Made by a program: the position numbers and the translations under genes. Below are positions 16,939 to 62,275 of a stretch of DNA of 64,000 nucleotides, piece after piece. Origin of the DNA: Schmidtea polychroa (Eukaryota); NCBI GenBank assembly GCA_044892525.1, contig CM097885.1, positions 80,104,001-80,168,000 of the forward strand, given 5' to 3'. How positions within the stretch are numbered: the stretch's first letter is position 1; each line of letters begins with the position of its first letter. Below the pieces are notes generated by a model. It was given only the letters and a program-made list of their open reading frames with translations, had not been told where the DNA came from and searched no databases.

Positions 16939-17743
16939 TGTTGGGGTTAGAGCAAAAACAAAATAAATTTCACAGGGTACCAGAAAGCAGAACAAAAATT
17001 GGTAAAATCAATATAAGTACAAAATTAATTAAAATTTAATAAAAATTAAAAATCAATATCGAACGGGTGTATCGGGTATGGTTGAATGCCGAATGGTTAG
17101 ACGAGGTTAGAAAGCATAATAAAAATGTAATAGAGTGACCATAGAAAAAGTTAATAAGGAAAAACAAATTAATTAAAATTAATTAATCTGTAATGGAAAG
17201 CCCGAGCCAATGGAAAGCCCGAGCCCATGGGAAACCCGATCACTGAAGAAAACCCGATGCGCAGTGAGACCCGAGACACCAGATAAGGGAATAACAATTC
17301 GAATAATAATTGGAGGGTAAATAAATTAAAATAATTGTCGAACCGTTCAAAATTTACTTCGGGTGCCCGGGGAAACAATTAATTTCATTTTGTTAGATAA
17401 TTGGCCTCTTAAAAACAGTATAAAAGGAGAGCTTAGAAATGAGCAAGCGGCCATTTGGTCGAAGAGAAAAAGGAAAAAGCTAAACAGAAAATTCAGCAAG
17501 GACAAGTCAAAGAAGAAATTTGTGAATTATAAAGAAGCAAGATCGTAGAAGAAAAAGTAATTACCCCTTGGGTTTCTTACCTTAGCGAACCAAATTCAAA
17601 TTGAGAGAAAGGTGCAAATAGTGGCAAATTGTAATTGTGATAAAAAGCGAATAAAGTTATTCTGTGTTGAGTTTTCATTGATTTGGTAAAATAAGGACAC
17701 GAGGAGTCAGAGAAAGGACCGACTTACAAATAAAAACTCAACA
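16939..17743 (+). repeat. 5' LTR of element A (805 bp, TG...CA)
   Basis: Starts TGTTG and ends CAACA. TATAAAA at 17419-17425, AATAAA at 17650-17655, 17-bp tandem AATGGAAAGCCCGAGCC near 17192-17225. Confidence 0.93.
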
Positions 17744-17746
17744 TTT

Positions 17747-17764
17747 TGGTGAGCCCGACGTGAT
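17747..17764 (+). promoter_or_regulatory. Primer-binding site, tRNA-Trp-like
   Basis: TGGTGAGCCCGACGTGAT starts 4 nt after the LTR end. Its complement ATCACGTCGGGCTCACCA differs by 1 nt from the metazoan tRNA-Trp 3' end as I recall it (ATCACGTCGGGGTCACCA). Confidence 0.8.
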
Positions 17765-18139: not shown

Positions 18140-20233
18140 TTGTATAATCTGAGAAGTAAAAAACACTTGGAAAATATGGCGACGAGCAACTCAAATATCA
18201 ATGAACAAATCTCAGTGTCTACTACTCAAGCGAACAATGGAAATGATTATGCCAGTTGTCAAAAGTTACCAGTTGAGCAATATGGAGGAGATCCAGTCGA
18301 ATTTGTTGACTTTATGGCAGATTATTACATGTATGCTACAGCTTATGGATGGAGCCAAGCAACTATGGTACAACGTCTACCATTATATTTAAAAGGAGCT
18401 GCGCGAGAGGCTTGGCAACAGATTGATAAACGACCTATAGTAAATGATTGGACAAGATTAAAAGATGCGTTGGCAGCCAAGTTGATTGGAGGAGATATAA
18501 AGAGAATGATGCGCCAAAAGTTCTACAGTCGAGTGCAAAAGCCCGATGAATCCATAAGTGAGTTTGCTTATCATTTAACTACTCTTGCAGAGAAAGCGTT
18601 CGAAGTAAAGCCAGATCAAGAGGAAGTGGCAAAGCAAGTCAAAGAATTACTTCAGGACCAATTTTTGACAGGAGTCAAGAAAGAAATCAAAAAGGCTTTA
18701 TGTTTTGTTGATTTTACAAATTTTGATGACTTGATTAGAAAAGCCATGAGAATTGAAATGAATCTTAAAACGACTCAGTCAAAGGCGGAATCATTTGCGA
18801 TTATCAATGAGCCTAGAGATAGATCTATAACCCCAGTCAGCGATAACTTGCTTCAAAGATCAACCAGTCCATCTCCCAAGTTCAGAGTGAAATTTGAACC
18901 AAGAAAGTCAACAGACAGTCCAAATGAGGAAAGAGAAAGAACTCTACAATGCAGTCATTGCCAGAGAATGGGTCATCACATAAATCAATGATGGTTTAAA
19001 AATAACATTCGAAGAAGCCCTAGTCCGGTTCAGTGTGATTACTGTCAAAGAAAAGGACATAGCAATAACCAATGTTGGTTCAAAAATAACGAACAACGTA
19101 GTCCAAAGGGAATGCGATCAGAATGGCTGAAAAGTAATGGTGAGAAAAGTTTTAACAGAACGAATATCGGTAACCAGAGAACTAATGATAACATACAATA
19201 CTATTATTGTGGAAGGAAAGGACATGTCACTCGAAATTGTTTTGCAAGATCCAGATCTCCATCAACATCACCCTCACCGCAAAGAGACAGAGTTAACCTA
19301 CAAGGCCAAATCCAATGTCATTCCTGTAGAGGCTATGGACATATGGCTAGATCTTGTCCAAAGAGTAATAATATATTTCAAAGGCCGATATTAAAGAAGA
19401 CGAGATTTCAGAAAGACAAATCGCAATCTGACAATATAGCTTTTGCGCAAACAGATGATTTTAACGAGAGGATTGAAAATGAGATGAAGCAGATGAGTAG
19501 ACGCTTGGATCGATTAATGTGCAAATTCGAATCGGACGAAGAATTGAGTAACCACGTGATGTATGAGTCGCAATCAGAAGGATCAGAGACAGATTCTAAA
19601 GAGAAATTGGATAAAGAAGACATAGAAAGAGAAAAAGTAACAATGATTATACTGAGGATCAACAAATTTATTAAAGAGAGAGCAACAGAAACATCTAAAG
19701 TAATCTCATCGCTAAAGGAATTGAGTCAAATGACACTGAGCATACGAAAATTGAAAAATGTAATTGAGTTATGTGCCGATTATTATGATACCAATTTAAA
19801 AGACGAAAAGGAAATTGAAAATGTGATGAAAATATTTGGAAAAACGTATCGAGAAAGTACATGGTTAGATTTTATTTTAATTAATGTTTTAGATGAAAAG
19901 GAGAAAGAAGTAGCTTGCATTCGGTGTGAAGCAGGAGATTGTGTAGATGATTTAAAGAATAGATTAAAAGAAAACAATGGGAAACAGATACTAGAATTGA
20001 AGTTTAAAAATCGATGCTTACGCAATGATGAGTTTTTAATTGATTGTGGTTTTATACCAGGAAATAAAAATAAAGTGATAGCAAAAATGACAAGATGTTA
20101 TGAAAATGTAAAAATTGATCCACAGAAAATTGTAAATGAGCTGAGAGAAGCTTTTGATGAGTGGAATAAAAATGCAATTGATGAAAAGTTAAAATTGGTA
20201 GAGGAAACGGAATTTGACGAAAATAGTAAATAA
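18140..20233 (+). pseudogene. gag: Gag (capsid plus four CCHC-type knuckles) followed by a helical and a ubiquitin-like domain; in-frame stops at 18989 and 20231
   Basis: Retrotransposon gag motifs (LPLYLKGAAREAW, RVQKPDESISEF); knuckles CSHCQRMGHHINQ*, CDYCQRKGHSNNQC, YYYCGRKGHVTRNC, CHSCRGYGHMARSC; UBL-like segment ending LKFKNRCLRNDEFLIDCGF. Confidence 0.88.
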
Positions 20234-20347
20234 GAAATTGTAAATGTAGTACGTCCATACACTCGAAATAAAAACTCTTAATATAAAGAAATATTAAAAG
20301 GTTTATTACGAAAATTTGGAAAAGAGATTAGAGAGACCAGGATAGAA

Positions 20348-21382
20348 TTGAAACCATTTGTAATAGCATTAGATTATAAAAATGAAGGAAAAATAGAGTA
20401 TATAGAAGAACATTGGTGTACCAAGGTTGGTAAATTACGAAAAAGAGCCGCTGAAAGAATGGGAAAGGATGGAATTATTCAATTGATATTTAAAAGTGAA
20501 GAATTAGATGACGATGAATATTTATACGATTGTGGGTTTATACCTCAAGAATTAGATGTAGACGGATATTTATGTTCAGATACAGGATATTCAATAAATT
20601 ATGTAATTGTAATCAAAAATCAGATATCAAATAAAGTATATGAGTCCGACAGGTCAAATAATGAGATAGAAAGGGGTGATGAAAATGAAGGTGTACTAGA
20701 TAACAAGGACATAGGAACTAATGATAAAGATAAAAGTATAATAACAGAAGTATTAAAGGAAGGGCAAGTAACCAAAAATGAAATGAATAGTGAAATAAAG
20801 ACAAAAAAGCCTAGAACTTTGTATGAAATAAAAAAGAGCCTGGTGAAGTCAGAATTAGAAGTGGATGAGACAAAAGAGTTATTAAAGAATTTAGTTAAAA
20901 TAGTATATCCAATGTTCGAAATAAAAGTGGGTACAAAGTGCGAATTGGGAGACACAGTGAATGAAATGGAAAAGAAACTTCCTAGTGTTATGCAGAGATT
21001 TGGTGAAAATGATGACTTTTGTAATAGAGGGGTCATGAAAACTTTGACGGAAAATGGAATTGATAAAGAAGTAGTACTAACAAGCTTAACATATGCAGTT
21101 TTAGAGATAGGAGCTCATAAGATAATGGAATCAGATGAATTAGAGAATTTGATAGATGCAGCTGCTCGAGTTTTAAATGAATACTTAATGAATTGGATAA
21201 AAAGGAATGGAGCTTGGACCAAACTAGTAAAAGTGCTTACGATAAATGAAAATAATGAAATTAATATACCTCATAAATCGCTAAACGGGGGAGTTAGCCC
21301 AATATTGAGAAAAACGATGGTATTTCCATGGGTAATGTTTATGATAATTGTTTTGTGCGCAATAATTACCCAGACAACCTGT
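20348..21382 (+). CDS. Ubiquitin-like domain plus Bcl-2-like domain plus hydrophobic anchor/signal segment (part of the ancestral polyprotein)
   Basis: UBL: IQLIFKSEELDDDEYLYDCGF. BH2-like LNEYLMNWIKRNGAWTKL (about 21175-21225). Hydrophobic MVFPWVMFMIIVLCAIIT. Confidence 0.75.
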
Positions 21383-23497
21383 ATGACTGCATATGATTGT
21401 TCACAAACGGAAATGGGAAAAATTTATTCGGTGATAGATGTGTCAGAATGCTCGGATGCATACCCGAGAAAACTAAAGATTGAAAAAGATGTAAAATATC
21501 ATGTATATCAAGAATCTGATTTAAGACGAACGAAAGTTCGAGAATGTATAGTTAAACATACTACATTTATATTTTATTGTGGGAAGTGGAGCCATACTTC
21601 ATTGATAAAGATGTAAACAATCCCAAGGCCAGTGGAAGTTATGCCAGAAAATTGTTTAGCAGGATTTCAAACAGAAGAATTGAAAATAAGTTCGGAAATT
21701 AAACTGAAGGCAAAAATAAATCATAGGACGAGAGAAACGGTGGTTACGAAGGGATTAATGAAGCAAGGCGGAGATTGTGAAGGGGAACCGTACAAAGTCA
21801 GTGGTAAAATTATTCAAAAAGCAGTGGTGATAGAAGAATATCTAACGGAATTGAGAGAATTTGAAGGAGCTTTTGATGATGATACGGGGAAGTTACAGAC
21901 CCACCCATTTTGTAATATGAAACAAAATAACTGTCAAACGGGGGAATCAATTCTTGTTTATGAAGTAAAAACTAATGTATGTAACTTAGCGCATTTAAAA
22001 ACGATGAATTTCAAAGAAATTAGTGGAGAGCAGTTTAGGGAAAGGCCTGACAATATTAATGTAAATTATGGAGTAAATATGACAATCAGATCAACGCCCC
22101 TTTGGACAAGAAAAACAGCGACTGTATTAATGTCAATAATTCCGATGGACGCCATGCGTTTTATATTAAAGGAAGTTACCAATAAATGTGGTCAGACGGT
22201 GTACTCCACAAATTACAAAGGAGTTTACGTATCAACAGTAATAGTACAGGAAGCTAAAACTAGAATTCATACGGGTGATATTAAATTAACCCATTACTTT
22301 AACAATAAAATTGATTATTTATTTCATTATAGTCAGAACACAATGGAGAATATCTATCGAGAAATAATCTTAAATGATTGTAAATTAAATAAAGAAATAC
22401 TTCGAAATCGAATGGCAATGACCATCACAAACCCAAATTTGGTTGCACCCATGTTAATATCAGAAAATGGAGTATTTGCGAGAATCTTCGGAGAAGCTTT
22501 ATACAGTTATAAATGTAAGGAAGTGTCAGTAAAAATAATGAAATATGAAAAATGCACTAATGAATTGCCAGTTAGCGTCGATGGGAAGATGCGATTTATG
22601 GAACCAATAACACGGATATTACTTGACGAAAACACAAAACCAAAATTACTCCAGTGCAATAGATTGCTAGCCCCGTTATACCGTTTGGCACCAGATTCTT
22701 GGGTAGCATTACCCGATTACCGAGGAGTTAGAACTCCAGATAAATTGGAATTAATCAATTTAGAGTATTTAGTGAACTTTACATCCCTAAATAAAATGGC
22801 ACAACTAGGTTTCTACGCAAGCGAGGATATAGAAGAAGCTCAAAGAAATTTATTATTTCCATCAAAGAAAGAACGGGTGATATCAGAAATGATTGATACA
22901 ATATTACCAAACGGAGAGAGTAAGGTTAATTATGAATATCTCCTAACGCCAGATCATTTCAAAAAAGCAACGTACAAAACGATGGAAAAGATTTGGGGAA
23001 AATTTATGTTCTTAGGACAAGCGTGTGCTGGTTTGATTGGCATCTATGTGATCGTAGTAACAACAAAGGTGATACTATCTCAAATTTTATCTGCTCATAG
23101 AATATATAAAATATCCGGATGGTCATGGAAAATAATTATTGGTTGTATTCCGTTTATAGCGAGATTTTTTATTACTCATCATCAATATAAAGAAATGGCG
23201 AATGTGAGAGCACAGGTAAAAACTGATCAAAAGAGTGAAGAATCTTTGTGTGAATCGAGGGACAGAAATAGTGGCAATAACGACAATAATGACAATGGCA
23301 GAAACGAGCAAATGTATTTTAGAAAAGAAATAATGAAAAGCGAGGTAAAACCAGAGTCACGATGCCTACTAGAACAGATGCCAAAACTTACAGGAATCGA
23401 CACTCTCTCAAAATGGTATACACCGGTATTCCTTCCAACAGCACCAACATATCCAAGTGAAAGGCTAAAAGAAATGAAACCAGTAGAACATGTTTAA
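21383..23497 (+). pseudogene. env: Chuvirus/gB-type envelope glycoprotein; in-frame stop at 21614
   Basis: AYDCS..YSVIDVSEC, FYCGKWSH, CKLNKEIL..ITNPN, GEALYSYKC, CTNELPV..FMEPITRIL, C-terminal TM segments (22994-23172). Collinear with the env of element B. Confidence 0.85.
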
Positions 23498-23548: not shown

Positions 23549-24955
23549 ATGCTCGGATTACCATGTAGTTATGCGTTGATGACAATAGGAAATAGAGGCA
23601 AACAACCTCGAACAAATATACTATTTAACGAGAGAAAGGTCAAAGCCTTGTTAGATTCCGGTTCCAGTCATACTATAGTGTCAGATAAACTGTTGACAAG
23701 GGAAAAGAGAGCAAAGATGAAACCGACGAATAAAGTTATTAAATCAATGTCTCACAATGTACTGAATATAATCGGGAAGCTAGAAGTCAAATTAATTATT
23801 GGTAATCAAGAAATAACACATTATGTGTCAGTAATGAGTAAAAGCCCTGTTGAATGTCTAATTGGTATGGATGTTATGGAGCAACTGCGAGGAATTGCGC
23901 TGGATCTGACAACAGGAAAATTAATAGAGGGGACAATTATAGTTCATGCTAATCGTTGTAAGAAAGTGCCGGCAATGGAGAGTGATAGATACCCGTTAAG
24001 ATCGAAAAAGAACAAATCAGTAGAAGAAAAAGTGGTCAAGCAAAAAGTTATTAAAAACCCAGTACCCTTAGGATATACCACTAAAGTCTTATTAATAACA
24101 ACAATAATGCTACTAAATGTTTTGGGAACAAATGCAGGTCGATCTTTTCCAAAGTATGCAATAAAAAGGGTCCCATTATTGGAGAAAATTCATATATATT
24201 CAACATGTACCCAAATATTATGGTTTTATCTGTGTGGGTCAACGGAAGAAATAGAAATAAATAATTTATTAAATCACTTTGACCCACCTGTAAAGTTGAA
24301 TTTCAATAAAAATATTTTCGTGGATCGTCAATTAACAGTCAATTATGAATACACTTGGCAAATAACAGAGTTACTATTTCAAAATAATAATACAAAAATA
24401 CGTAATATAACCCAAATTGAAATATTAACAAAAAATTTAAACAGTCTGGTTTCAATAGAACCAGTAGTGAATGGAATCGACGTATATTGGGAACCCCACG
24501 AATCCCAAAAAGTGAAATTAATCTTCCAAAATAATATTATCGATACATTAAACATCAGAAAACCCTTTGTCCATTACAACAATTTAAAATTAAATCAAAC
24601 GTATGATATCGTTGTGCAATATTATGAAAAGCTTTTGCGTGAAAATGGTACCGAAATCGATAACCAGTGGGTAAAAATTGAGTCTATTCGACAATCCATA
24701 AAATTGGAAAATGAACCAAATCGTATTATTTTACGATATGATAATCAAAAATGGATAGCCACACGACAAGCGATAACCAATAAAAAAGTGGAAATTTATT
24801 ATTGTGGAAAACTGCAAGCTATATTGCAAGGTAATATTACATCTAAAATATTAACATTTCAGCAAATACGTTCAAAGTCAACTTCAAAAATTGTGATTGT
24901 AAAGATAAATATTATCAACGTGCTTTTCATCCCGATCATTGGAAAATCGTTCTAG
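23549..24955 (+). CDS. Aspartic protease fused in-frame to an integrase C-terminal remnant and a signal-peptide/FN3-like ectodomain
   Basis: ALLDSGSSHTIV and CLIGMD, then IIVHANRCKKVP (integrase tail), hydrophobic VLLITTIMLLNVLGTNAG, and FN3-like VYWEP...NNLKLNQTYDIVVQ. Confidence 0.8.
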   Translation: MLGLPCSYALMTIGNRGKQPRTNILFNERKVKALLDSGSSHTIVSDKLLTREKRAKMKPTNKVIKSMSHNVLNIIGKLEVKLIIGNQEITHYVSVMSKSPVECLIGMDVMEQLRGIALDLTTGKLIEGTIIVHANRCKKVPAMESDRYPLRSKKNKSVEEKVVKQKVIKNPVPLGYTTKVLLITTIMLLNVLGTNAGRSFPKYAIKRVPLLEKIHIYSTCTQILWFYLCGSTEEIEINNLLNHFDPPVKLNFNKNIFVDRQLTVNYEYTWQITELLFQNNNTKIRNITQIEILTKNLNSLVSIEPVVNGIDVYWEPHESQKVKLIFQNNIIDTLNIRKPFVHYNNLKLNQTYDIVVQYYEKLLRENGTEIDNQWVKIESIRQSIKLENEPNRIILRYDNQKWIATRQAITNKKVEIYYCGKLQAILQGNITSKILTFQQIRSKSTSKIVIVKINIINVLFIPIIGKSF

Positions 24956-26240: not shown

Positions 26241-26938
26241 TGTTGGGGTTAGAGCAAAAACAAAATAAATTTCACAGGGTACCAGAAAGCAGAACAAAAA
26301 TTGGTAAAATCAATATAAGTACAAAATTAATTAAAATTTAATAAAAATTAAAAATCAATATCGAACGGGTGTATCGGGTATGGTTGAATGCCGAATGGTT
26401 AACGAGGTTAGAAAGCATAATAAAAATGTAATAGGGTGACCATAGAAAAAGTTAATAAGGAAAAACAAATTAATTAAAATTAATTAATCTGTAATGGAAA
26501 GCCCGAGCCAATGGAAAGCCCGAGCCCATGGGAAACCCGATCACTGAAGAAAACCCGATGCGCAGTGAGACCCGAGACACCAGATAAGGGAATAACAATT
26601 CGAATAATAATTGGAGGGTAAATAAATTAAAATAATTGTCGAACCGTTCAAAATTTACTTCGGGTGCCCGGGGAAACAATTAATTTCATTTTGTTAGATA
26701 ATTGGCCTCTTAAAAACAGTATAAAAGGAGAGCTTAGAAATGAGCAAGCGGCCATTTGGTCGAAGAGAAAAAGGAAAAAGCTAAACAGAAAATTCAGCAA
26801 GGACAAGTCAAAGAAGAAATTTGTGAATTATAAAGAAGCAAGATCGTAGAAGAAAAAGTAATTACCCCTTGGGTTTCTTACCTTAGCGAACCAAATTCAA
26901 ATTGAGAGAAAGGTGCAAATAGTGGCAAATTGTAATTG
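26241..26938 (+). repeat. 3' LTR of element A (truncated by gap)
   Basis: Matches 16939-17637; I see only a 1-bp indel and one substitution. Confidence 0.95.
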
Positions 26939-35652: not shown

Positions 35653-36517
35653 CATTTTTGTTGTATCTACTTTATCCACACTTTTGTCGAAGAAGTTTAA
35701 ATTTCAAATTAATTCTGTAAATTGACGCCAATTTTTGACGCCAATATAAGAAAAAGAGAGTAATGAAATCACCGGTCGCATGGGACTACCTCTGCACACT
35801 ATAATCGCCGAGTATTTCAATGGGTTTGTGGACTTCCGATAGAAGCCACATGGCCGACTTCAGTTTAGTCCCTCTTATTTTATACTCTAATGAAGCTAAC
35901 CTTGGGCAACCTGCTCCCCTATGACTTATTCCTCATGCTATTGTGTGAGTCGATATTGTTGCGGGTACACTCGGATGACCCCTTTCTAGTGCAGCTTTAG
36001 TCTAGAGGATGAATGCCCACCTCAATTTCGCCCGTCATTTATTTGGTCATCGCCGAGCGGGACCCGCACATAACCTACACTCCAACATAGCACCCGTGAA
36101 TTGCTTCACGTTGGAACTGTGCTATGCCGGCGAGACGCCAGTAAGCAGGTGAGCCAGCTCCTTCGGACTACTCCTTACTGAGGCCTCGACTTTCCAACCC
36201 TGACTGCCGATAGAAGGACTTACGTCTACTCATTCCGTCGCCCCATCGCAATGTTTCTAGCTGAGTTTGCCAACTGACTAATGCTCCTCATAATTTTGTG
36301 ACTCTCAATACCATTTATCAATTTCAACTCAACTGTCCTAAGATGAACATAAAAAACGTATACAGACAAAAATGGTTTATTATTAAGATTATCACACAAA
36401 TATATTTGACACCTATACAATAAAATTCACGACAACAGGAAAAGAGACAAAGGTAAAAATGTTATCAGACAATGTTCGGGTCATTTCAGTGAACGAAAAC
36501 CTTTTACGGAGAAGTTC

Positions 36518-37267
36518 TCATTTCTCCCACTCCGAGTCTGCCAATAGATCTTCCAAATCGAAAAATTCGGAGGCATTTTCCTCCCAGGTTACACCAGCGG
36601 CGGAGATGATTCGCCCTGAGATCACTGATGCTAGATCGATTGCTGCAGGAGGGTTGATGACTTTGATTGGATGATCCGACGACTTCCGGTTCTGTTTGGC
36701 GGTTACGCGTTCCCGCTGTTTCTTTTTGCGTTCGGCTCTCGATAATTGCCGACGCTTTGGCTTCGATGCCGTTTGATTGGTCGGGGGTGCTGCAGAGGTA
36801 GATGCCATCGCAGGTAGCACTTTACTGGTTCCGGTAAAGATGATTTCTGGTTCTTTAGGTGAGAGCTCGGTCTCTACGCACCCATGGCAGGACTTTCCGA
36901 CTGGAGCTGAAAACCCGCCAGAGATATCATGATGTGCTGGGAAAAGATTACTGGCTTCATTAATTGGGATCTTCGCGATCTTCCTTGTAGTTGCTGCCTG
37001 GACGTATAATTTGTGTAGCGCCTCCGACTGCTCTTTTATCAGGCTCCTCTGCGCCCGACTCTCCGAAATTAACGCGTCTCTACAGTGCTCGCTTCGGTGC
37101 AGCTTCTTCTGAGCCTCCTTCATCTGGGTGGGACTAAACCATGTCCCCTCTAACTCATCTATCCTTCTTTTGTGCTTTCCGATTTGGGCCTGGAGCTCTT
37201 TGATAATTGAATTCTTGTCGGAGCAAGAAAAACAAGGTCGAAGAACGGTCTTGGAATTTGGCAACAT
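36518..37267 (-). CDS. LTR-encoded 249-aa protein (CxxC x2, coiled coil, basic NLS-like segment, acidic tail); 3' LTR copy
   Basis: Intact ORF identical in both LTRs; preceded by a strong acceptor (rc TTTTTTTTATTTTTCTCCGCAG) 9 nt before the ATG. Confidence 0.7.
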   Translation of the reverse strand: MLPNSKTVLRPCFSCSDKNSIIKELQAQIGKHKRRIDELEGTWFSPTQMKEAQKKLHRSEHCRDALISESRAQRSLIKEQSEALHKLYVQAATTRKIAKIPINEASNLFPAHHDISGGFSAPVGKSCHGCVETELSPKEPEIIFTGTSKVLPAMASTSAAPPTNQTASKPKRRQLSRAERKKKQRERVTAKQNRKSSDHPIKVINPPAAIDLASVISGRIISAAGVTWEENASEFFDLEDLLADSEWEK

Positions 37268-39719
37268 TTTGAGTGACTGCGGAGAAAAATAAAAAAAAAT
37301 GAAAATAATTAGATCAACGGGAGTGTCACCATCTGACTACATTCATACTTTACTGATCATAGACAAAAATATGGGTTTACCAGTCAAGACAAGTCCTACT
37401 ACGCGATGGATTCTCGTACCCTTTCGGGGCTTTAATTATAAGAAGTTAAATCGATCAAACCAGATTTCGCACAAGGAAAAAGGAAGATATTACTATTTGT
37501 GAGAGGAATTCTAGGTCTATGAAAATGATTATTTATTTACTCCGCTTGGGGTCATTATTTCACGTTTACCGAGAATCGATTTAAATTGTCGACTTCTCCC
37601 CCCGTACGAGTGTTTTTAATGAGTGCATCATGTACTGGGGTCGAGTGACTATCTATGGAAAAGGGGTCCATAATGCCTGTTGATTAGTTCCTACAGGATA
37701 AACGGAAGGTTATTTAAATTTTTAATTGTCTATTCATTCTCTTTAATTACTCACATATGCGTTTTACCTGGTTTACATAATATTTATTTAACAATATTCG
37801 ATATTAATATTAATGATAACTATGTCAAAAAATGAAATAATTTCGGTGCCATTCATGCTAAGATAATAAAGGGAGAATAATCATAATTATGATCGAGGTT
37901 ATCATTAAAATTAGTGTCTTTATAACAACTGAGCACGGTATCAGTGTGAGCTAGTAGCCGACCATACCTGCTGGGTAGATAAGGTAATGTCAGCCCAGTG
38001 ATTGACTCTTAATCCGGAGCGGTAAAATCTGATACCTGTCGGTAGTTTAATTGGTTAATAGAAATTCCATCTGGTATGTTCGGTCTGATTTTACATGAGT
38101 AGAGACGGTGTGACTTTACCCACTACGCTTGGCTACTGTGTATGTCGGCAACTGGGTGACGCATGCAAGGTGCGTTTTCACACTCTTGATTATACCGATC
38201 GCTGGTAATGTAGGTCTTAAATGTTTGTATGCTGACATGTTCTCAGATTTTTATCTACTGCGTAATCACTCACAATTCTCCTGCGTATGGTGATGATTTA
38301 CTAATCCTCACCGGATTATTGGAAAAATTATAATTATCTATATTGCAAATGTTGGATACAGCTTGCTCCAAGGGTGGATTTTTCGTCTTTAATTCCTCGA
38401 ACATAGTTTATCGAGCTACTCTCTAAGTGCTGGAGGATTTCTACCTATCCCTACTGGATTGCCAGCCCTATGAAATACTGGAATTTTATATTTAATTAAC
38501 AAGATCATCGGTTAACTTGAAGAAATATATTTTTCTTGGCTCGAATTAGTTGCATTTTTCATTTTTAAATTATTTGATGCTAATAGTTCGTGTAATTATG
38601 ATAATTAATTATAGGTAAATCCTTTTATATAGAATTCTAAAAATTTATTATAGCAAATCATTTTATATAATTTAAACTCTTATTTGGAACGAACTCGTTT
38701 TATGCAATTCTAATAATTATCTGAAATAAATCATTTTACGTGGTTCTACAATCTATTCGTAAACAGTCATTTTAAGTAATCTTAATACTTATCTGAAGCA
38801 ATCTACTTTGAACTCCCTTGCAACTATGTCTTTAAGAGAACTTTTAGATGAACGGAATAATAGTTCTAAAGGTCATAGGCTAAAAATTGGTCGGAACAGA
38901 TTCTGAGTGAAAAGTATGAACATCGAAGATCTATCACATATAGCCCCACTAATGTCTGAACGATTATTTGACGCACAACTTACATCGATGATAGAGAAAA
39001 TTTGGCTTAGTAGAAACGATATTTGAAGACGATAGGGTGACACCCTCAATCACTGCGCGAATACCTAAGAATCCTCCGATTCATTTATTACATATCTTTG
39101 TTTTCAATCACTATATGACTATCAATTTTCTGCCACAATTTGCCTATAGATTTTGGTCGCACCTTCAGCGATTGGACCCGTGAAGAAGCCCTCACATTTC
39201 GGCCCAATCTAGCTGCGTGATTGAAATGAAATACCCTATGTCCACCGGTGGAGCTCCCGGAGGCACCTCACACCATGACATAGAGTATCTCAACGCCACG
39301 TTCCTCAAAAATTTAATTAACATAATAATAATTCGTAAAAATAATTCATCAAAGAAAAATCAATAATTCCTAGAAAGTAAATCATTTATTATTAAATAAC
39401 CAGATCATTAAATCAAATAACATGCTTGAAATCAAACGAAAAGAAAAGGTAAAATCTTTAAATTTAAATTATAATTAGATTATACCATTACTTATAAATT
39501 CAAAATAAGAAATCCAAAAATCCTTACCGAGTGTTTCAAATAGGCTGAGTCGAAACGTACTAAGTGGAATTGGTTAATACTAGAATCGATTATAGATTTA
39601 GATGAGGTTTCTTGAATCTTGGAATAGTCCTTGTGATGATCCTGTAAGTCAGTGTCTGTTGCTGTGAATCGCTAGTTCTATAGTAGTTGTTGGATTAACG
39701 GTAATGTTAATGAAAATAC

Positions 39720-39807
39720 ACTTACCTATAGCAGTTGTTGGATTAACGGTAATTATAATGATTTTAATGTCTGCTTATATATTAGTTTTCTATTTACGCG
39801 GACCAAT
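39720..39807 (-). promoter_or_regulatory. Putative LTR promoter and first splice donor
   Basis: rc TATATAAG at 39774-39781, CCAAT at 39803-39807, and rc AG|GTAAGT at 39720-39725. Confidence 0.45.
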
Positions 39808-40460
39808 CAGAATTGAATACCGCCTTATTTTATTAATTTAATTTATTTTCCTTGTTTTTGGGTTATTTCTTCCTATTTTCTTTATTAAAATTATGTTTTA
39901 TTTATTTTCCTTAATTTCCTTATTATCTAATATATTTTACGTTATTTTTCGTCATTCTATTGTCCTATTTTAATTTTTCTTATTTTTATATTTTTTTGTT
40001 TTAATTCCTATTTTCTAATTATTGTTTTTCTTATGTTCTATTCTATTTTGTTCGTAAATTTGTTTATTTTATTTCTTTATTTTACTTTAGTACATTTGAC
40101 CTAATCTCCCAGCTACCCTTCGGCTCAGCCCAACAAATCACTCGGGGACCCATCAAAATTGCGTCCCGCAATTGCATAGTTATCTTACTTCATGCATTCC
40201 TAAAAAGGATATATCGAAACAATTATACTACAATAACAAGAAAAATTTTTTATTCTAAGATATAGGTCAAATCAAGATCAAGCAAGTATCACTTAAGGTG
40301 ATAGTTTGTATATACAATAAAAGTTTCCACATATGATAACACAAATGTTTGAGTTAGAGTTTATGAACTGTTAACCATTTGATGCTTCTGCTGGCGGTTG
40401 TTGGTTGGTTTGGGTATTGATGTTGAGCTAGGTCTGACTGTTAGAATTTGGCTGGATTGG

Positions 40461-43197: not shown

Positions 43198-44586
43198 TTA
43201 CTCCGTTCTACCCTTCTCCTCTTTCCTCACGGTCATCTTGATATATACTGTGTCATTCCTTGCCATATCTTCTACTTTTTGTTGCCGGATGAACGTAGGT
43301 GCTCCTGTTGCTGATCCTTCTTCTTCCGTAGGTCTCTGGTAACACATTTGGTTTCCCGTTGTCTTGAAGCTTTGCTCGTGGATGCTTTGGTCATTCATTA
43401 GTGCAATATCAATTTTTGCCTGGAACGGCCACTCTATTATTTCGTCATACTCCCCTTTGCATAACAGAAAGAAGATCGAAAAATGTGTATCTAATCCGGT
43501 TCCGTCCCCGTTGGGATATATCTTCATTTTCATTTTGTACCCATTTTTCCAAGAATGGAATGCAGGACTTGTTATTCTTGTCTCTTCTCCGGTTTTTGCT
43601 TTTCGTATTCTTTCTTTTACTCCCGTTATTTTCCATATGTAGGGTGCTGTTGGGGTTATCTCATTTAGATTTATTTCCCGTATTTTCTGATGTAGCTCCT
43701 TGACCTGATTATTACTGATTTCTATTCGGTTTATTTGCATCTTTATGTTTGCTCGGGCTTCTTCGAACGCTTCCCTTTCTTCTAGTAGTTCTTTGACTAA
43801 CACTTTCCACGATGTTATCTCTATCTCCATTTGTTTTACTTTCTCTTCGCTTTCTTGTAACGCAGTCGACCACATTTCTGCGTGGGTTGAAGCATTTTCC
43901 ACTAAATGGTGCGGTAATTCTCCTCGGTGTAGTAGTTTCTGACAGCCCCATTTACCTAGTACACATGTCATTCTTTTCTTTTCACATTCCTTTAGGTGCT
44001 GTGCCACCTTTATTATTTCCCCTTGGTTACATCCGTTTGGGCACTCCCCACTGAACTCTGCACATACCTTTTCCTCTTGGACATTGTGATGTTTGAGGGT
44101 GAGATTTTTCCACGTATCTATTTCTCCACAATGTTCACATCTTTCCAATCTCTCTTCACACTGCCTTTGATGCTCTTTTTCTTCGCTTACTCGAATGGTT
44201 TTATGGCACCTTTCACACTGGCCGATTCTGTACATACATTCTCCCATATGTTGCACTACTTTCCATATTACTCCTTTCCATTCGCATGGGGCATTTTTAC
44301 ATCCCAGATTGGTGTTTAACATGTCTTTCACTGCGGCTTTATCCTCGTTAGTGTCTTCTAAACTCGATATTCGTGTTTCTTTACACACCGGGCACCACTG
44401 TGGTCTATTCTTTATTGCTTCACTGATGCATTCCTTACACAATCTGCATCCACATTGGGTTTGGTGGGGTTCCTTTAGCAACTTTTCACATATTCCGCAC
44501 ATAACATGTTTGTGTATTCTGATCGTTGTAGATTTTCTGACTTGTTCGACAATCTCCCCGAACTCTTCTCTTTGTCGTTTATCCAT
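43198..44586 (-). CDS. Full-length TRAF-family E3 ligase/adaptor (RING - TRAF zinc fingers - coiled coil - MATH), 462 aa
   Basis: RING CGICEKLLKEPHQTQCGCRLCKEC..CPVC; zf-TRAF repeats; MATH YIWKI..SPAF..GYKMKMKIYPNGDGTG..HFSIFFLLCKGEYDEIIEWPF. Confidence 0.95.
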   Translation of the reverse strand: MDKRQREEFGEIVEQVRKSTTIRIHKHVMCGICEKLLKEPHQTQCGCRLCKECISEAIKNRPQWCPVCKETRISSLEDTNEDKAAVKDMLNTNLGCKNAPCEWKGVIWKVVQHMGECMYRIGQCERCHKTIRVSEEKEHQRQCEERLERCEHCGEIDTWKNLTLKHHNVQEEKVCAEFSGECPNGCNQGEIIKVAQHLKECEKKRMTCVLGKWGCQKLLHRGELPHHLVENASTHAEMWSTALQESEEKVKQMEIEITSWKVLVKELLEEREAFEEARANIKMQINRIEISNNQVKELHQKIREINLNEITPTAPYIWKITGVKERIRKAKTGEETRITSPAFHSWKNGYKMKMKIYPNGDGTGLDTHFSIFFLLCKGEYDEIIEWPFQAKIDIALMNDQSIHEQSFKTTGNQMCYQRPTEEEGSATGAPTFIRQQKVEDMARNDTVYIKMTVRKEEKGRTE

Positions 44587-44671
44587 TCTATAATTATATA
44601 TACATATAGTTCTTATCGATACAGGTTCGATATTTTATTTACAATTATTTACATTTTAAGCTAGGTTTGGT

Positions 44672-45191: not shown

Positions 45192-46194
45192 CTATATACG
45201 TGAGTTTGGAGGGCGCTGTGCGTTCCAGGCCTCCACCCACTGCTCTGGTTTGATATCACTTGGTCGTTTCACTCGATGTTGGAAATTTCTGATTCGGGTC
45301 ATTTCTAGTTCTCCGCGATGTCGTTTATCTTTAATTATTTTTATTGTTCCCCCCATTATGATTAGGAATGCCCCTGTTATTATTATCCCACTGATCCACA
45401 TCATCTGCTTCACGCTTATACTCTCTGGTTTTTCCTTGTTTGTTAATGTTGATATTGCTTCTGTACTTTTCTCGTTCCCTCTTTTGCCATTCCCTTTCAT
45501 CATCTCTCGTATTCTTGCTATTTCCTCGTTCATACCCTCCTTTGCCATCTTTTGTATTTTTTCCATCTCTTCCTCCGAAACATAGTTGTCCTGAGCTTCT
45601 TCGCCGGTTTTCTTGTGCTTTCCTCCTTCGTCCTTTTCGTCGTGGTTTTTTCTTTTCTTTCCTCTTTTCCCCGGGTATCGTCGGCATTCTCTTTTTGATT
45701 CGTTCCTCCAGATACAAACCGTGTATTCCTTCGGGGGCTGCTGCTGCGTCACATATTGATGGCATCTCTCACCTGGTCCTAATCTTGAAATACAGACTTT
45801 GTGCTCTTTTCTTGGTTGGAGCTGCGTTATTACTACTTCACCACCTTTTCCTAGGTGTACCTCTTTTCCTTTAACGTTCGTTATTCTCTTCCCGTCTCGA
45901 TTTCGGTATGCTTCTTGTATTCTTACTTCTGTTATTGGTTCTGTGTCCTCATTTATCAGTACTAGTTTCTGATACGCTCTAGACATGCATCTTCCTAGTA
46001 TGCACCTTTCCTTTAAGTCCCATTCTTCCTTTAAATCCCACTGCTGCTCTTGTGCTTGCTTTTTCTTTTCTTGTTTTAGTTCCTCCATTTTGCCATCTTG
46101 ATTCTCCGCTTCTTTGGTTTCTTTTATCGTTCTCGTCCCTCCATGAGCTGTTACTAACTCTATCATGGTAAGCATAATTATCATTAATATCATA
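45192..46194 (-). other. Polyprotein domain: C-terminal type I membrane protein
   Basis: Signal-like MILMIIMLTMIELVTAHG (46141-46194); two Cys-pair repeats P.KE..VCI.R....C..Y; TM MMWISGIIITGAFLIIMGG (about 45345-45405). Confidence 0.7.
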
Positions 46195-49100
46195 TTTGTC
46201 TCTATTTCTTTGTTAGTGAAAGGTAGGCATACCCTCTGTTTTCCATTATTCGGTTTTTCCTCCTCTTTGGTCTTGGTTCCCGGGCTGTTTCCCTCTCTTT
46301 TCGTATCCGAATCCTTGTTTTTCGGTTTATCCTCTTCCGGTTCTCTTTTCTCTTTATCCTCCTTTCGGCCTTTTCCGTCATTGTCATCGTGTTTATCTCC
46401 CCCGCTGTCGTTTAAAATGTCGTCCTCGACATTTATATCGTTCAATAATCTGCGATATGCTGTTAGCACTCTGTTTCTTGCTAATTTTGCTTCGAATTCA
46501 AACTCTTTTCTGCCCGTTGCAGCGTGTCTCTTTCTATTCCATTCTTTGACTAATTCTCTTAATTGAATGCGACGATGTTTCCCAATTCTTTGTTGCTCGC
46601 TCTGATTTTGCGTGAATTTGAGGTCTTCTCTGTTTAGTACTATTAAAATAATTTTTGGTGTCCCCCCTTTAGTTAATGTATTTTTTACCATCGCGTTTTC
46701 TCCGTTTTCGTAGAATTCGTTTATATTTATCGCATATTTATTACTTTGTGGTACTCTCCATGTTAATAATAATTTCATTGCTTCCAGATTTTTCCGTACC
46801 GTATTCCATTGAAACTGAGCTGTGTTTTTGCATATATTTTCAACTTCTTCTTTTGTCGCATTTTTGCAAATAAATCTGATCATTTCTAAGTTTGGCTGTA
46901 TGGTTGCCCAGTCCATTGTGGAGTTCCCTTCGTTTGACTTTTCGTCTAGTCTCGATCCTGATTGATGTAGTATGTGGAGTGTTTTTGGGTGTATTTTTGT
47001 TATAGCTGCATACATCATGGCGGTTTCGCCTTGTTCATTTTTCGTGTTGGTTTCCTCGCCCATATCCCCAAGGATTCTCATGATCGTTATTGCTCTATTT
47101 TCTTTTGCTGCTAGTATTGCTTGTTGTAGGGGTGTTCTGGAATCCTTCGTTACCATCGTAAATGCTCTAGGTAAAAAGGTTTTGATTTTCCCGATATCTA
47201 AACCCGTGGTTTGATCTCTTGCGTATGTGTGGACGGCTTTTATTATTTTTGACAATATTATTTCGTCTGACAACTCTAGCATTTCCTCAAAGAATACTTC
47301 TTTCGCTTTGCGTATTATTGCCTCTTGATCTATACTCATTGATTTGGTTTCGATGACGTTGTTTGTGACCGTTTGGTTCGTTGTCGACTTTGGTTCCCTT
47401 GATTTCCCATACCTTATTTTCGTTTTCTTTCCGTTTGGATTATTGATTCGTTCCTCTGCTGTAAGTATTTGGATAATATCCAGGTAATTCTCGCGGATGG
47501 TATTCATTGTGTCCATCATATATAACACACTCACCGTTTCCCAATATTTATTTCGTACTTGGTTAGTAAATTGGAATAGTGATTTTTCGAATGTGTCGAT
47601 TCGCTTTTTTGCTAACTGTTCATCTTTATGATTTGTGAATTTTATCCCTCGTTCTAGTAATTGATTCGGGATTTCGAATAAATGATGTCCTTTCATGGCT
47701 TCTCTCATCAGCGTGTTCTCTCCTCTCGTGAACGCTTCGTTTACGTTGATCATATAATCATTTTTAAATGGATTTCTCCATGTAATTAATATTCCGGTAA
47801 TTGTTGTCAGTTTTTCTTTGATCGCTGTTAATAATCCATCATACATGTTTCCGACTTCTCGATTGTCCTCATATGATAATAGTTCCATCAACGACGTGAA
47901 CGCCTCGGTACTTTTCCCTTCGATAGCATGATGTAGTGCGTTTTTCTGCTCGTGGTCTTGTGTAGTTATTTTTGATCCCGTGTCAAGTAATGCGGTTATA
48001 ATGTCTTTTGTTTTGCCTCTGTTTACTGCTATCATTAATGGTGTGTAACCTTGGTTGTTTTCTTGTTCTGTTGATCGCTTGCAGTCGTGAAATGCTTCTA
48101 TTGTTTCTAGTATTTGCTCGTTGTTACCTACTTTCATGAGTTTGTGTAATGGTGTGTCTCCGTAATGATCTGTTATTGTAAATAATATTGGCCATTGGCT
48201 TTTGACTACTCGCAATAATGGGTGTGTCCTTTCTCTATTTGCATAGTTTTCGATCATCGTCAATAATCCTCCTAATATTTCGAAATCTAATCGATCTTTT
48301 GCCCATCCAGGTATTTTAATTTTTACCTCTTTTACAATCTTTTCCGCTTCTGATGGTTGGATACCCAATCGTCCCGTCGTGGGTTCGGCGAGTTGTTGCA
48401 TCATGTTCATTCTGTAGGTTTGCGAACGTGTGGTTAATGTACGGCCTTCTGGTTGACTGGTGGCTGTTTTTGGAATTGATTTGCATCGTGCCACGTTTAC
48501 GTATATTGGCCTGGTAAATGGATTATTTACCAATTTCACTCTTACATTGGTTTCGCCTACGAATAAGATCTCATATGGTCCTTTTCCGTTCCGTTGTAGC
48601 TTTTTTGTGGTTCCTGGAATCAGTTCTGGGGTCTCGATCATCACCCAATCACCTGTTTGGAAAGTGTGTTGCTTCACGTTTTTCTTTCGATCGTGTAAAT
48701 CTTTATAACTTTCCTGGTAGAACTTGATATTTAACCCCGCGGTTTCCCAAATTTCCTGCATTCTCTCTTTGAATTTCGTAACATAATCGTCTATCTCCAT
48801 GTATTGCGATATTGGTGGTTGGTATTCCAGGTCCATTGGCATGTTGCATTCTCTCCCGTACATTAATTTAAATGGGCTCATTTTTGTTGACGCATGAATT
48901 GACATTCTATAAGCCATAAGACATAGATTTATGTATTCATCCCAATCTCGCTGGTGACGATCGACGTAATTCGATAGCATTTGGATAAGTGTTCCGTTGA
49001 ATCTTTCCGTCATCCCGTTGGTTTGAGGATGATATGGAGATGTTCTTAGTTTTGCGATTTTGAAATAGTTTGTCACTTCGCTCATTATCTCGCTCATGAA

Positions 49101-52100
49101 ATTAGTTCCTTGATCGGTTAATATTTGCTTCGGCGTTCCATATCGGCAACATATTTCTTCCACTAAGATTTTTGCGATTGTTTTAGCTTTTTGGTCTGGC
49201 ATCGCGAATGCTTCTGGGAATTTCGTAAGAAAGTCTGTGATCACTAGAATGTAAACATTTCCTTTATCCGACTCTGGTAGTGGACCAACTACGTCCATGG
49301 ATATCATCGTCATCGGTTCTATTGGTACTGGCATTGGCGTTAAAGGCGCTTTCCATTTTGATCCAGTATTTTTCCGTGTTGCACATGTTAGGCAGTTTTT
49401 CACCCACTCGCTTACGTCTTCCGTTAGGGTTGGCCAAAAATATTTTTGTTTCATTCTTGCTAACGTCTTTTTCGATGACATATGTCCTCCCAATCTACCA
49501 TCGTGATATTGCGTTAGTAAATCCTTCCGTCGGTTTTCTGGCACACACATTAATCTCTTCTCTCCATCCATTATCAGTAACCAATCTTTCTCTATAATAT
49601 ATCGATGTCGGTGTTTATCCATATGTTCTTTTAATTTTTGATCTTTCGCATATTCCTCCGTCTTTCCGGTTTTTACATAATCGATAATCCGTTTCAGTTC
49701 TACGTCTTCTTGTTGGTCCTTTCGCAATTGACAGAAATCTAAATCTTCCGCTACTATTAAGCATATGCGTTGCATTTCTGAATCCACCAAATCTGGGAAA
49801 ATAAATCTTGACATACAATCGGCGTTGGCATTTGCTCTTCCCGCTTTGAATTTTATAAATGGGGAGTATTCTTGCAATTGCATGGCCCATCTCATCAGTC
49901 TACTGGACGCTTCTTTATGTTGCCCTAACCACACTAATGGTTGATGATCTGTGGTTATACATATCTCATGTCCCCATAGTAAATATCGGAAGTGTTTGAT
50001 AGCTTGTATTATAGCCAATGCTTCTCGTTCTGTTACCGAATAGTTCTTCTCGTGCTTTTTGAATGTTCGACTGTAGTATCCAATTACTCTTTCTTTACCG
50101 TCGTCGTCTAATTGTCCCAAAATTGCGCCTGCCGCGTACCCGCTTGCATCCGTTGCTAATAGAAATGGTTTCTTGAAATCGGGGTGTACGAGGATAGGTG
50201 CTTCGATTAGTTTGTCTCTCAGCGTTTCAAACGCCTCTTGTTGTTCCTTCCCCCAAATGAACGAAATGTCTTTCTTTACTAATTCCTGGATTGGTTTTGC
50301 AATTCCTGCATAATTTTTGATAAATTTGCGATAGTATCCGCATAATCCTAGGAATTCCTGAACTTGGGAGACAGTTTTCGGTGCTGGACATGTTTTTATT
50401 TTCTCAATGTTTCTTGGATCTGGCTCTTTTCCTTTAGCTGACACGATGTGTCCCAAAAACGTGACTTTTTCCTTTGCCCAATCGCATTTTGATGGTTTGA
50501 GTTTGAGTTTCCATTGTCGCAATCGAATAAATACATTTCGGATATCCTCCAGATGTTGTTCGAATGTCGCTGAATAGATTAGCAAATCATCAATATATAC
50601 CATACATTGTTTGATTCCATGAGTGACAAAGTTCATACACCTTTGAAATGATGCTGGTGCATTGGTCAGTCCGAATGGCATTTTCCTGAACTGATATAGA
50701 TCTCGTCCCAACGTGAAAGCTGTTTTCTCTTTGTCCTCATCTTTGACTTTAATCTGCCAGTATCCACTTTTTAGATCTAAAGACGTAAAATATGCTGCCC
50801 CTTGCAACGTCAATAACATCTCATTGATGTCCGGTAATGGATAGGTATCTCTCTTGGTTACTGCGTTTAACTTCCGATAATCGATACAGAATCGTTGGGT
50901 GCCATCTTTCTTTTTTACCATGACCACTGGGAATTGCCATGGTGAGCAACTCGGCTCGATTACCTTTGCGTCTAGCATCTTTTGTACTTCCGCTTCGGCT
51001 ATTTCTTTCTGCATTTCTGCTAGCTTGTATGGTCTCAATGCAATTGGAGTTTCGTCTATGAGTGGTATTGCATGTAAGGTAACATCGCATGTACCCAAAT
51101 CTAAATCTGAGATGGCGAATATATCTTTATATTCTACTAATAATCGGTGCAATTTTCTCTTTTCGTCATCCGTTAACAATGTACTGTCGATTGTCCATAA
51201 TTCGTCGTCTTTGGTCATCTCGTTGGTCACTTTTGGTAATTCGATATTGATCATTGGAGTTAATTTTCCCAATCTTTCATTTTCGTAGATGATTTTGTCT
51301 TCTTCTTCAAAATTTGTGATGTTGAGCGGTATCACTCCTTCTTGGTTTATTGTGATTATTTCCCTTGCGAGTGGTAACTCTCGTCGCTTTTCAAATGACT
51401 TGCTTGGTTCAAAGATAACTTCTCCTTCCATACCCGTATCCACTTTTATCTGACAAATCATCTGCGATTTTGCTGGTACTATTATTTTTTCTGGACATCT
51501 GATTACTGCATTCATTTTGCATATTCTACTGGTTTTGTCTTTTAAACACATGGTTGTTAAGTCAATTACGACTTCTTTTAATAATTCTGGCATCAGATCC
51601 GTTCCGATTATGCATGGTACGCTAAGTTTTGGTATTACTGCCAAATACGTTTCAATTTCGTTGTCCTGGTATCTCAAAGTAGTCCACCATCTTCCGACCA
51701 CGTCTACTGTTTCTTTACTACATGCTATGATGTGTATTGTTGTTGATTCGATATCTTTCCAGTGTTTACTGGGAATTTGATTAATCGCTATCGCTGATAC
51801 ATTAGCTCCTGTGTCTATCATAGCATTGGTTTCTTTACCATTGATTTGGATCATGACTGTCACTGCTGGACCTCCAGGTAAGCTCATCGCGGCTATTGTT
51901 CTTACGTCATCTGCTTGATCTACACTTTTGGTACGTCGTGTTGGCATATAATGCATGCCGGGTTGACTCGGTAATTGCGGATACATATTTTGTGTCATGG
52001 TCAAAGCTGTTTGTGGTCCCACGATATCCGGTGGTATATAGCTTCCATTGGCGATCCAGGTATTTGTCTTTTCCTTTTCCCAATACGGTGCTGTTTCTAT

Positions 52101-61461: not shown

Positions 61462-61947
61462 TCATTCACCATAATAGACCATATGAGTTTCTTTTATCTC
61501 GTGCTTACATATCGTGCATCTTTTTAGCTCGTTCCCGCATTCTTCGCAGTGACTGAGGTGTCCACACGGCAAAAACAGTACGCGAATAGGACGAAGTTTA
61601 CAAGCAAGGCAAGTTCGTAGTAGAGTCAGTTTTTCTTGTATTTTCCGCTCGATTGTATCTGATATGGTATTTAAGGGATCTTTTATACGTTGATAATCAA
61701 GATTTAATGCTGGGTGGTTCAATCTCTCTTGATACCATTGGTACACGGTTTCCGGGTTTACCTTCCCATCTGGGTGACTTAGTCCTGTGGCTAATAACAT
61801 GTGGTTGGGAACGGCTGGTGTTTGCCCGATTGCTTGGAGTAATATGATGTTAATTCTTTCTCTCTTTTGTGTCAGCGTTTTAAGGGAGTCATTCTCGATG
61901 TTTATGAAGTTGATTAGTTGTTGTATCTGGTCTACGAATTCCGTCAT
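61462..61947 (-). CDS. IAP/MDM2-type C-terminal RING protein, 161 aa, upstream of gag
   Basis: CLACKLRPIRVLFLPCGHLSHCEECGNELKRCTICKHEI at the extreme C-terminus; acceptor TTTTTTTTAATAG 2 nt before the ATG; no BIR motif. Confidence 0.85.
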   Translation of the reverse strand: MTEFVDQIQQLINFINIENDSLKTLTQKRERINIILLQAIGQTPAVPNHMLLATGLSHPDGKVNPETVYQWYQERLNHPALNLDYQRIKDPLNTISDTIERKIQEKLTLLRTCLACKLRPIRVLFLPCGHLSHCEECGNELKRCTICKHEIKETHMVYYGE

Positions 61948-62257: not shown

Positions 62258-62275
62258 ATCCCGGCTGAGCCCCCA
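62258..62275 (-). promoter_or_regulatory. Primer-binding site, tRNA-Pro-like
   Basis: rc TGGGGGCTCAGCCGGGAT, 7 nt after the LTR end. The + strand AAATCCCGGCTGAGCCCCCA resembles the tRNA-Pro 3' end as I recall it (AAATCCCGGACGAGCCCCCA). Confidence 0.85.

Follow-up and report, generated by a model that had tools for sequence, protein, structure and literature searches.

We analysed a 64,000-nucleotide stretch of Schmidtea polychroa DNA (assembly GCA_044892525.1, contig CM097885.1, positions 80,104,001 to 80,168,000), hereafter the window, to whose first letter all positions refer. The genome around it is AT-rich and comprises 781 Mb, with four large contigs. The window carries two long terminal repeat (LTR) elements, A on the + strand and B on the − strand, and in both of them the same series of domains was found in one frame: gag, units made of a helical bundle and a ubiquitin-like (UBL) domain (two in A, three in B), a Bcl-2-like domain, a hydrophobic helix, an envelope glycoprotein (Env) and the protease. 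Sequence comparison with relatives indicates that the helix between Bcl-2 and Env is the cleavable signal peptide of Env itself, and suggests that this cassette was built stepwise in a lineage in which giant size is derived. The features of element A are listed below; RT, RH and IN denote reverse transcriptase, RNase H and integrase, PR the protease, and BH1 and BH2 the Bcl-2 homology motifs.

16939..17743, + strand: 5' LTR, 805 bp, with TG...CA ends, 99.7% identical to the 3' LTR over 699 bp
17747..17764, + strand: primer-binding site, read from sequence
18176..19363, + strand: gag with CCHC knuckles (PF03732, PF00098), stop at 18989
19628..19870, + strand: helical bundle 1, before UBL 1 (profile match; A itself is in the profile)
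19871..20110, + strand: UBL domain 1 (A4 alignment profile matches ubiquitin/ISG15)
20117..20347, + strand: helical bundle 2, interrupted by stops (20231, 20279)
20348..20617, + strand: UBL domain 2 (profile)
20840..21247, + strand: Bcl-2-like domain that has kept BH2 and lost NWGR (below the PF00452 cut-off, E 4.8e-4)
21308..21382, + strand: putative internal Env signal peptide, predicted to be retained on Bcl-2 as C-terminal anchor (hydropathy; (−3,−1) rule)
21383..23220, + strand: class III fusion Env, stop at 21614 (PF24664 E 3e-71)
23012..23065 and 23129..23176, + strand: Env membrane segments
23600..23890, + strand: aspartic protease (PF13975 E 1e-7)
23930..23939, + strand: junction of a ~3.0-kb RT-RH-IN deletion, common to a pol-less subfamily
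24080..24130, + strand: second signal-like helix, in the C-terminal part of the polyprotein
26241..26938, + strand: 3' LTR, visible part

Element B is ~30.5 kb long, has 4,179-bp LTRs and a 4-bp target duplication, and runs 2,461 bases past the window; it comprises the following features.

62283..64000, − strand: 5' LTR, extending 2,461 bases past the window
62258..62275, − strand: primer-binding site, read from sequence
61462..61980, − strand: upstream RING open reading frame (ORF) (PF13920 E 2e-11)
45192..59384, − strand: polyprotein of 4,730 codons with gag, three helical+UBL units, Bcl-2, Env, PR, RT, RH, IN, ankyrins and a second membrane protein
56844..57260, − strand: helical+UBL unit 1 (profile; in the profile by construction)
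56241..56732, − strand: helical+UBL unit 2 (profile; in the profile by construction)
55377..55832, − strand: helical+UBL unit 3 (model pLDDT 80.5; UBL Z 11.5, rmsd 1.3 over 70)
54354..54779, − strand: predicted Bcl-2-fold domain, model residues 21-162 (VIA Z 14.0, rmsd 2.7 over 137)
54195..54269, − strand: putative internal Env signal peptide (model helix 189-210; (−3,−1) rule)
52335..54194, − strand: class III fusion Env (PF24664 E 4e-69)
51582..51857, − strand: aspartic protease (PF00077 E 1.4e-9)
45342..46205, − strand: second signal-like helix, ectodomain and transmembrane helix, after integrase
43198..44634, − strand: accessory RING-MATH (TRAF-like) ORF
35957..40135, − strand: 3' LTR, 4,179 bp

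The two elements differ in LTR length and in the sequence of their primer-binding sites, as a preliminary description of the window had claimed; we take the site of A to be tRNA-Trp-like and that of B to be tRNA-Pro-like. The same description placed UBL, Bcl-2 and Env in-frame between gag and protease, which is true of the phase in both elements, but the A frame is closed by five stops (18989, 20231, 20279, 21614 and 23495). Compared with copies that have a 3,419-codon frame, A also lacks ~3.0 kb of RT-RH-IN (at ~23930) and ~1.4 kb, corresponding to most of a second ORF. The word 'compact' that had been applied to A suits its parent family, which is ~14.3 kb long with an 805-bp LTR and thus not giant but less than half the length of B, while the A copy itself is short partly through deletions. 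The pol-deletion junction was spanned by 10 of 40 scored matches, in which gag, Bcl-2, Env and protease were kept; besides the window copy, pol-less copies lie at L161-L166. Three of the stops are nearly private, being common to 1/21, 1/22 and 0/27 copies covering them, and programmed read-through was ruled out for this reason. Since the pol deletion is shared, the stops are near-private and the LTRs are 99.7% identical, A probably belongs to a pol-less subfamily that was mobilised in trans.

Some further observations concern the layout of the two elements. The second ORF of the A family, mostly deleted in the window copy, is an ISG20-like DEDD exonuclease (L032:4605-6065), and exonuclease-like stretches, judged by eye, lie upstream of Env in the outside proteins P0004 and P0040. 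An inverted, ~75% identical piece of the polypurine tract/LTR region of A abuts its 5' LTR (16654-16937), giving a near-palindrome. In B, a 74-bp tandem array occupies 60404-60924 of the 5' untranslated region, and a degraded, internally deleted relative of B lies at 451-3210 (DNA identity 76% in pol and 66% in the TRAF region). Four contig sets of presumed run type that were compared with B showed no splice-like joint and were given no weight.

A and B could be aligned directly over the cassette, with 28% identity over 335 aa from Bcl-2 through the Env N-terminus (E 1e-26) and 36% over 545 aa of Env (E 9e-112), and PF24664, the class III fusion glycoprotein of Monjiviricetes, scored above cut-off in both. 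What had been called the same glycoprotein in both elements is homologous but not identical. The positions previously given for the Bcl-2 domains agree with the B model (54354-54779) and with a profile match in A (20780-21247). In a Pfam scan of whole proteins, the Bcl-2 domain of A remained below cut-off and that of B was missed, whereas all 12 excised domains from six families matched PF00452 at E<=0.1 (B being the weakest, 0.089). When a profile of the element domains was compared with the PDB, the best 60 of 148 matches were all Bcl-2 or Bcl-xL. The structural comparison called for by the preliminary description likewise gave a Bcl-2 fold for the B model, with Bcl-2 folds filling the top 29 of 50 rows (first unrelated row Z 8.2) and the poxvirus Bcl-2 folds A52, N1L and A46 among the matches. 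Both elements are therefore assigned a Bcl-2-fold domain, by modelling for B and by sequence for A. The BH2 pattern W-x4-G-G-W was recognizable, with its last Trp in 12/12 rows and its first in 11/12 (His in B). The BH1 motif NWGR was found in 0/12 rows, the nearest being N-R-D-K in families F4 and F5; in view of this loss, we treat an anti-apoptotic role as a candidate function only.

Each UBL is preceded by a four-helix bundle of ~75 residues (A 19628-19870; B 55593-55829), and the two are duplicated together as a unit, in 1-3 copies per element; the model of B unit 3 contained four helices and a beta-grasp. PF00240 was matched by 6/13 UBL units at E<=0.5, and units of a sister family matched it singly. 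A C-terminal di-glycine was present in 0/5 UBL units of A and B, ruling out that they are host-cleaved processing signals of the pestivirus style. A by-eye likeness of the helical bundle to TFIIS-N gained no support from a profile comparison with 6 host rows (hhalign probability 0.5%, E 0.13).

As estimated from dN/dS, the Bcl-2 domain is under purifying selection, yet changes faster than Env: the values were 0.04 (B-B3), 0.12 (F4-F5) and 0.22 (F1-F2) for Bcl-2, 0.04, 0.03 and 0.07 for Env in the same pairs, and 0.41-0.86 for the linker between BH2 and the helix, all of which are rough because dS is 1-2, near saturation.

We then asked how widely the cassette is distributed. In the same genome, for which all family and copy counts are lower bounds from 25 fetched stretches and further tiles, there are at least five compact families (3,419, 3,437, 3,334 and ~3,053 codons, the fifth in broken copies only) and at least three giant families (~4,730-4,810 codons), all with UBL, Bcl-2, helix and Env in the same order. 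Outside this genome, word-index protein searches yielded little, and a profile built from these elements gave 137 matches among 1.84 billion proteins, 22 of which were scanned with Pfam and all with local profiles. These relatives fall into grades: gag, Env and protease without UBL or Bcl-2 (grade 1: P0029, P0039 and P0065, together with P0035 and P0040, which are gag-truncated and have neither UBL nor Bcl-2 before Env), a UBL unit without Bcl-2 (grade 2: P0013 and P0025, with P0021 alike by eye but without a profile match), and Bcl-2 before Env (grade 3: P0004, P0005, P0007 and P0010). P0015 and P0017 are truncated and have no Bcl-2 before Env, and neither has P0142, which extends over 4,844 aa from just before Env to its end and has repeated proteases. 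Tandem aspartic proteases in one polyprotein occur in P0142 (up to six Pfam stretches), P0013, P0015, P0017 and P0065. P0025 is filed under a Flavobacteriaceae metagenome bin and is probably animal DNA in that bin.

Env trees, the first of which used 37 of the 137 outside matches and the later ones 13-18, and which include a quick mixture-model tree and a careful LG tree, recovered a clade of elements with Env in-frame (19-23 rows, support 98-99). Five rows without UBL or Bcl-2 (P0029, P0035, P0039, P0040 and P0065) are basal in it, and an inner group with A, B and the other UBL/Bcl-2 bearers (support 83-94) leaves grade 1 outside; the RT-RNase H tree gave the same inner group with A and B (98/97). 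A single branch (98/96) separates the 18 element Bcl-2 domains from 15 Bcl-2 proteins that are cellular or stand-alone, whereas the nine Bcl-2-bearing Env rows were rejected as one clade (approximately unbiased (AU) test, p 0.0017). This combination fits one gain and several losses, and one capture of Bcl-2 followed by about three losses is the simplest and likely reading. The trees thus support a common origin of the Env and Bcl-2 domains of A and B, independent origins not being favoured, and the earlier idea of an ancestral cassette holds as far as common origin is concerned, but the cassette was not gained as a single unit: the sequences suggest that Env was placed in-frame first and that helical+UBL units and Bcl-2 followed.

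The proposal that gigantism came later is likewise supported by the sequences. The interval from the last knuckle to Env grows from 234-330 aa in basal members through 363-709 aa in most cassette bearers to ~1,330 aa in B. In addition, the B giants and the P0142 lineage, represented by its cluster mate P0017, were rejected as one clade (AU p 3e-6), which supports at least two origins of giants.

The helix at the Bcl-2/Env junction had been described as the Bcl-2 C-terminal anchor, lying where the Env signal peptide must be. In 13/15 Bcl-2-bearing proteins, a hydrophobic stretch carries small residues at −3 and −1 relative to a site that lies three residues ahead of Tyr/Phe-Asp-Cys, and the same junction was present in 10/10 relatives without Bcl-2 and in 11/13 Pao-borne or free G proteins (3/16 gave no junction). 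At the shared offset the (−3,−1) rule was obeyed in 34/38 proteins in total, compared with 3-16/38 at seven other offsets. Because the helix occurs in relatives that have no Bcl-2 and in G proteins, it is, on this comparison, a signal peptide (predicted to be cleavable) that belongs to Env and predates the capture of Bcl-2; descent from a Bcl-2 tail is ruled out by its presence in the Bcl-2-less relatives. Accordingly, only the signal peptide part of the earlier description stands by descent, and the helix is not Bcl-2's own anchor.

A helix of this origin could still serve Bcl-2. In the hepatitis C virus (HCV) core-E1 and flavivirus C-prM junctions, an internal signal peptide stays after cleavage on the upstream chain (core or capsid) and doubles as the C-terminal anchor of this cytosolic protein. 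These are unrelated RNA viruses, and the likeness to the elements is one of mechanism only. The helix follows BH2 by 23-51 aa in 10 element proteins, a distance that overlaps the 15-41 aa between BH2 and the tail anchor in 5 cellular ones, so that one helix can do both jobs. We infer that after signal peptidase cleavage it should remain on Bcl-2 as an anchor in the endoplasmic reticulum (ER), a dual role that is plausible by topology.

The polyproteins contain further hydrophobic segments: exactly two follow integrase in 6/8 of them, one of the others being cut by the fetched stretch and one showing four. This suggests a polyprotein that crosses the membrane four times and keeps both Gag and Pol in the cytosol. 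In members of all kinds (compact, giant and without Bcl-2, including P0015, P0025, P0040 and P0142), the last part of the polyprotein, behind integrase, is a module of signal, ectodomain and transmembrane segment. A fibronectin type III (FN3) label for this second ectodomain was a by-eye lead and was dropped (best Pfam E 0.099).

The explanation that we favour as a whole, and regard as rather probable, is that all these elements form one gypsy-type (Metaviridae-like) lineage with a membrane-threaded polyprotein, in which an Env-derived helix anchors a captured Bcl-2. Its basis in the data is the domain order, the folds, the common ancestry, the losses, the purifying selection and the anatomy of the signal peptide. 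An ancestor would have acquired, between gag and protease, a Monjiviricetes-type class III Env complete with its signal peptide; one sub-lineage would then have added helical+UBL units and taken up Bcl-2 from a cellular source in a single event that left the native tail behind; and some descendants would have lost Bcl-2, while others would have duplicated the UBL unit and turned giant, at least twice. Cleavage, topology, ER location and the function of the cassette are reconstructed as follows. The internal signal would direct Env to the ER lumen, signal peptidase would cut three residues before the conserved Tyr-Asp-Cys and leave the helix on the upstream product, and Bcl-2 would thereby be tail-anchored on the cytosolic face of the ER, by analogy with HCV core and the E1 signal. 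The Env transmembrane helix would bring PR-RT-IN back to the cytosol, the second signal and the last helix would produce a second surface protein, giving four membrane passes in all, and the element protease would release the cytosolic parts. Once anchored, the Bcl-2 fold would most likely act in the cell in which the element is replicating and dampen the death or stress signalling of the host there, through contacts that we propose to be non-canonical since NWGR is gone.

Several points weigh against this explanation. The node uniting the UBL/Bcl-2 bearers has a support of only 83-94 on Env, the divergent Bcl-2 rows could group through long-branch attraction, and the outside relatives were picked by an element-derived profile and are mostly fragments (P0035, P0040, P0015 and P0017 are without the gag end). 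The Bcl-2 model of B is middling (pLDDT 67, the other four models 50-59) and its best Foldseek E is only 1.7e-3, and Bcl-2 and UBL of A were assigned by profile and homology, those of B by structure model. The absence of NWGR belongs here as well, as do the fast divergence of Bcl-2 (B and B2 are 34% identical in this domain, but 59% in Env and 91% in RT) and the linkers of the B pair, which are nearly as constrained as Bcl-2. Finally, the (−3,−1) rule is a crude cleavage test for which offset 0 also scores 27/38, and Env has two C-terminal hydrophobic segments, so a single return pass is an assumption.

The alternative that survives best, though we think it unlikely, is that the Bcl-2 fold is a structural adaptor which, with the retained signal, tethers Gag at the membrane beside Env and so replaces the matrix domain that gypsy Gag lacks, in the manner of the capsid anchors of flaviviruses or HCV. 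The loss of NWGR in 12/12 rows, the covalent link from Gag to the signal in all Env-in-frame relatives with or without Bcl-2, and the poxvirus folds with other jobs (A52, N1L and A46) among the fold matches would agree with such a role. However, the Bcl-2-less relatives keep the tether, indicating that Bcl-2 is not needed for it, and B also carries RING and TRAF-like cargo; moreover, a Burro1 IAP is reported to protect stem cells (a 2026 study cited in PMC13465017).

It is quite improbable that Bcl-2 is freed from the membrane by the element protease or signal peptide peptidase and that the helix serves Env only. With 23-51 aa and a dN/dS of 0.41-0.86, the linker from BH2 to the helix varies enough that it could hold a cut site, but no linker motif was conserved across families in the alignment, the linker of family F3 has just 23 residues, and the spacing resembles that of cellular tail anchors. 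Swapping of modules by recombination between compact and giant elements, or repeated capture of Bcl-2, so that the shared order would not reflect descent, is hardly credible: on the Env tree the presence of Bcl-2 requires 4 changes, and none of the Env, RT and Bcl-2 trees resolves how the families are related at depth, but the groupings B+B2, F1-F3 and F4-F5 are identical and the A-B divergence is deep in all three.

Other features were noted around the two elements. The window also contains an intronless 946-codon TopBP1-like BRCT ORF (9267-12107), a decayed gypsy element (27746-31484), which served as an RT outgroup and in which protease and RT come directly behind gag and Env is absent, and two direct copies of a 543-bp repeat that flank a perfect 172-bp inverted repeat (34407-35656). 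Elsewhere in the genome, stand-alone Bcl-2-like genes (L054-L068) are multi-copy and dispersed, some with an apparent short intron, and TFIIS-N genes (IWS1-like by eye) form a multi-copy cluster (L147-L160) near one end of contig C2.

Burro and GYPSM1 are giant gypsy-like LTR retrotransposons of planarians (Arkhipova and Yushenova 2019, PMC6431247, citing Jurka 2007 and Grohme 2018), and Burro has been described as the first case of Ubi2/SUMO-like, BCL2 and mononegavirus-like env domains in-frame between gag and pol (PMC6431247). Its ORF further includes a dUTPase-like domain, and its cargo TRAF/MATH and BIR-RING (PMC6431247); Burro is also mentioned in PMC11410931. Like Burro, B is ~30 kb long with multi-kb LTRs and a single huge ORF (4,730 codons, against ~4,800 aa in Burro) holding gag, UBL, BCL2, env, PR, RT, RH, IN and ankyrin. 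MATH and RING were found among its cargo, and no BIR domain was matched in the single frame of the upstream RING ORF that was scanned. Unlike Burro as described, B contains three helical+UBL units, and its MATH domain is encoded by an ORF of its own further downstream. By size and domain order, B is a Burro-type element. The A family, by its RT-RH and Env clade and its domain order, falls into the same Env-in-frame lineage related to Burro, but it is 14 kb long and has a DEDD exonuclease ORF in place of the ankyrin/TRAF cargo.

Another comparison is offered by Anakin-type Pao/BEL elements, which are reported to have a chuvirus-derived glycoprotein (PMC7642597, PMC10084718). The Pao-type P0119 and P0087 share with A and B the Env family PF24664 and the signal-peptide junction; unlike A and B, Anakin-type elements have a BEL/Pao backbone, Env after integrase and no UBL or Bcl-2, and they lie outside the Env-in-frame clade. 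The element Bcl-2 domains resemble cellular and viral Bcl-2 (Bcl-xL, Hydra HyBcl-2-4, African swine fever virus A179L and Kaposi's sarcoma-associated herpesvirus Bcl-2) in the helical bundle, BH2 and a similar distance to a C-terminal hydrophobic helix, but they share only 8-17% identity with them, have lost NWGR, are embedded in a polyprotein, and would use an anchor borrowed from Env, with a cleavage region instead of a free basic tail.

With the core cassette already in print for Burro, the surprise is limited accordingly. What is added here are the compact families, the stepwise history with losses, the double origin of gigantism and the derivation of the anchor from Env. The Burro section of PMC6431247 mentions neither compact or Bcl-2-less relatives nor the signal-peptide junction or a second C-terminal membrane protein, and our literature search, whose coverage left out most subscription papers, found no description of compact relatives, Bcl-2-less relatives or the signal junction.

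These results give an order of events for the building of the largest animal LTR elements, in which the putative anti-death cargo predates gigantism. It is possible, although we put it forward tentatively, that enveloped gypsy-type proviruses with a four-pass polyprotein form a wider, as yet undescribed lineage of which Burro is only the swollen tip. Its members would retain the Env signal peptide to anchor cargo on the Gag side in the membrane, and the junction would thereby be a capture slot that yields an ER-anchored viral death inhibitor from host Bcl-2, one-for-one with Env. The compact families would be far simpler objects for studying the role of a Bcl-2 carried by a retroelement in an animal capable of regeneration, and the shared helix would offer a precise, testable route by which a captured host domain may obtain a membrane anchor at no added coding cost.

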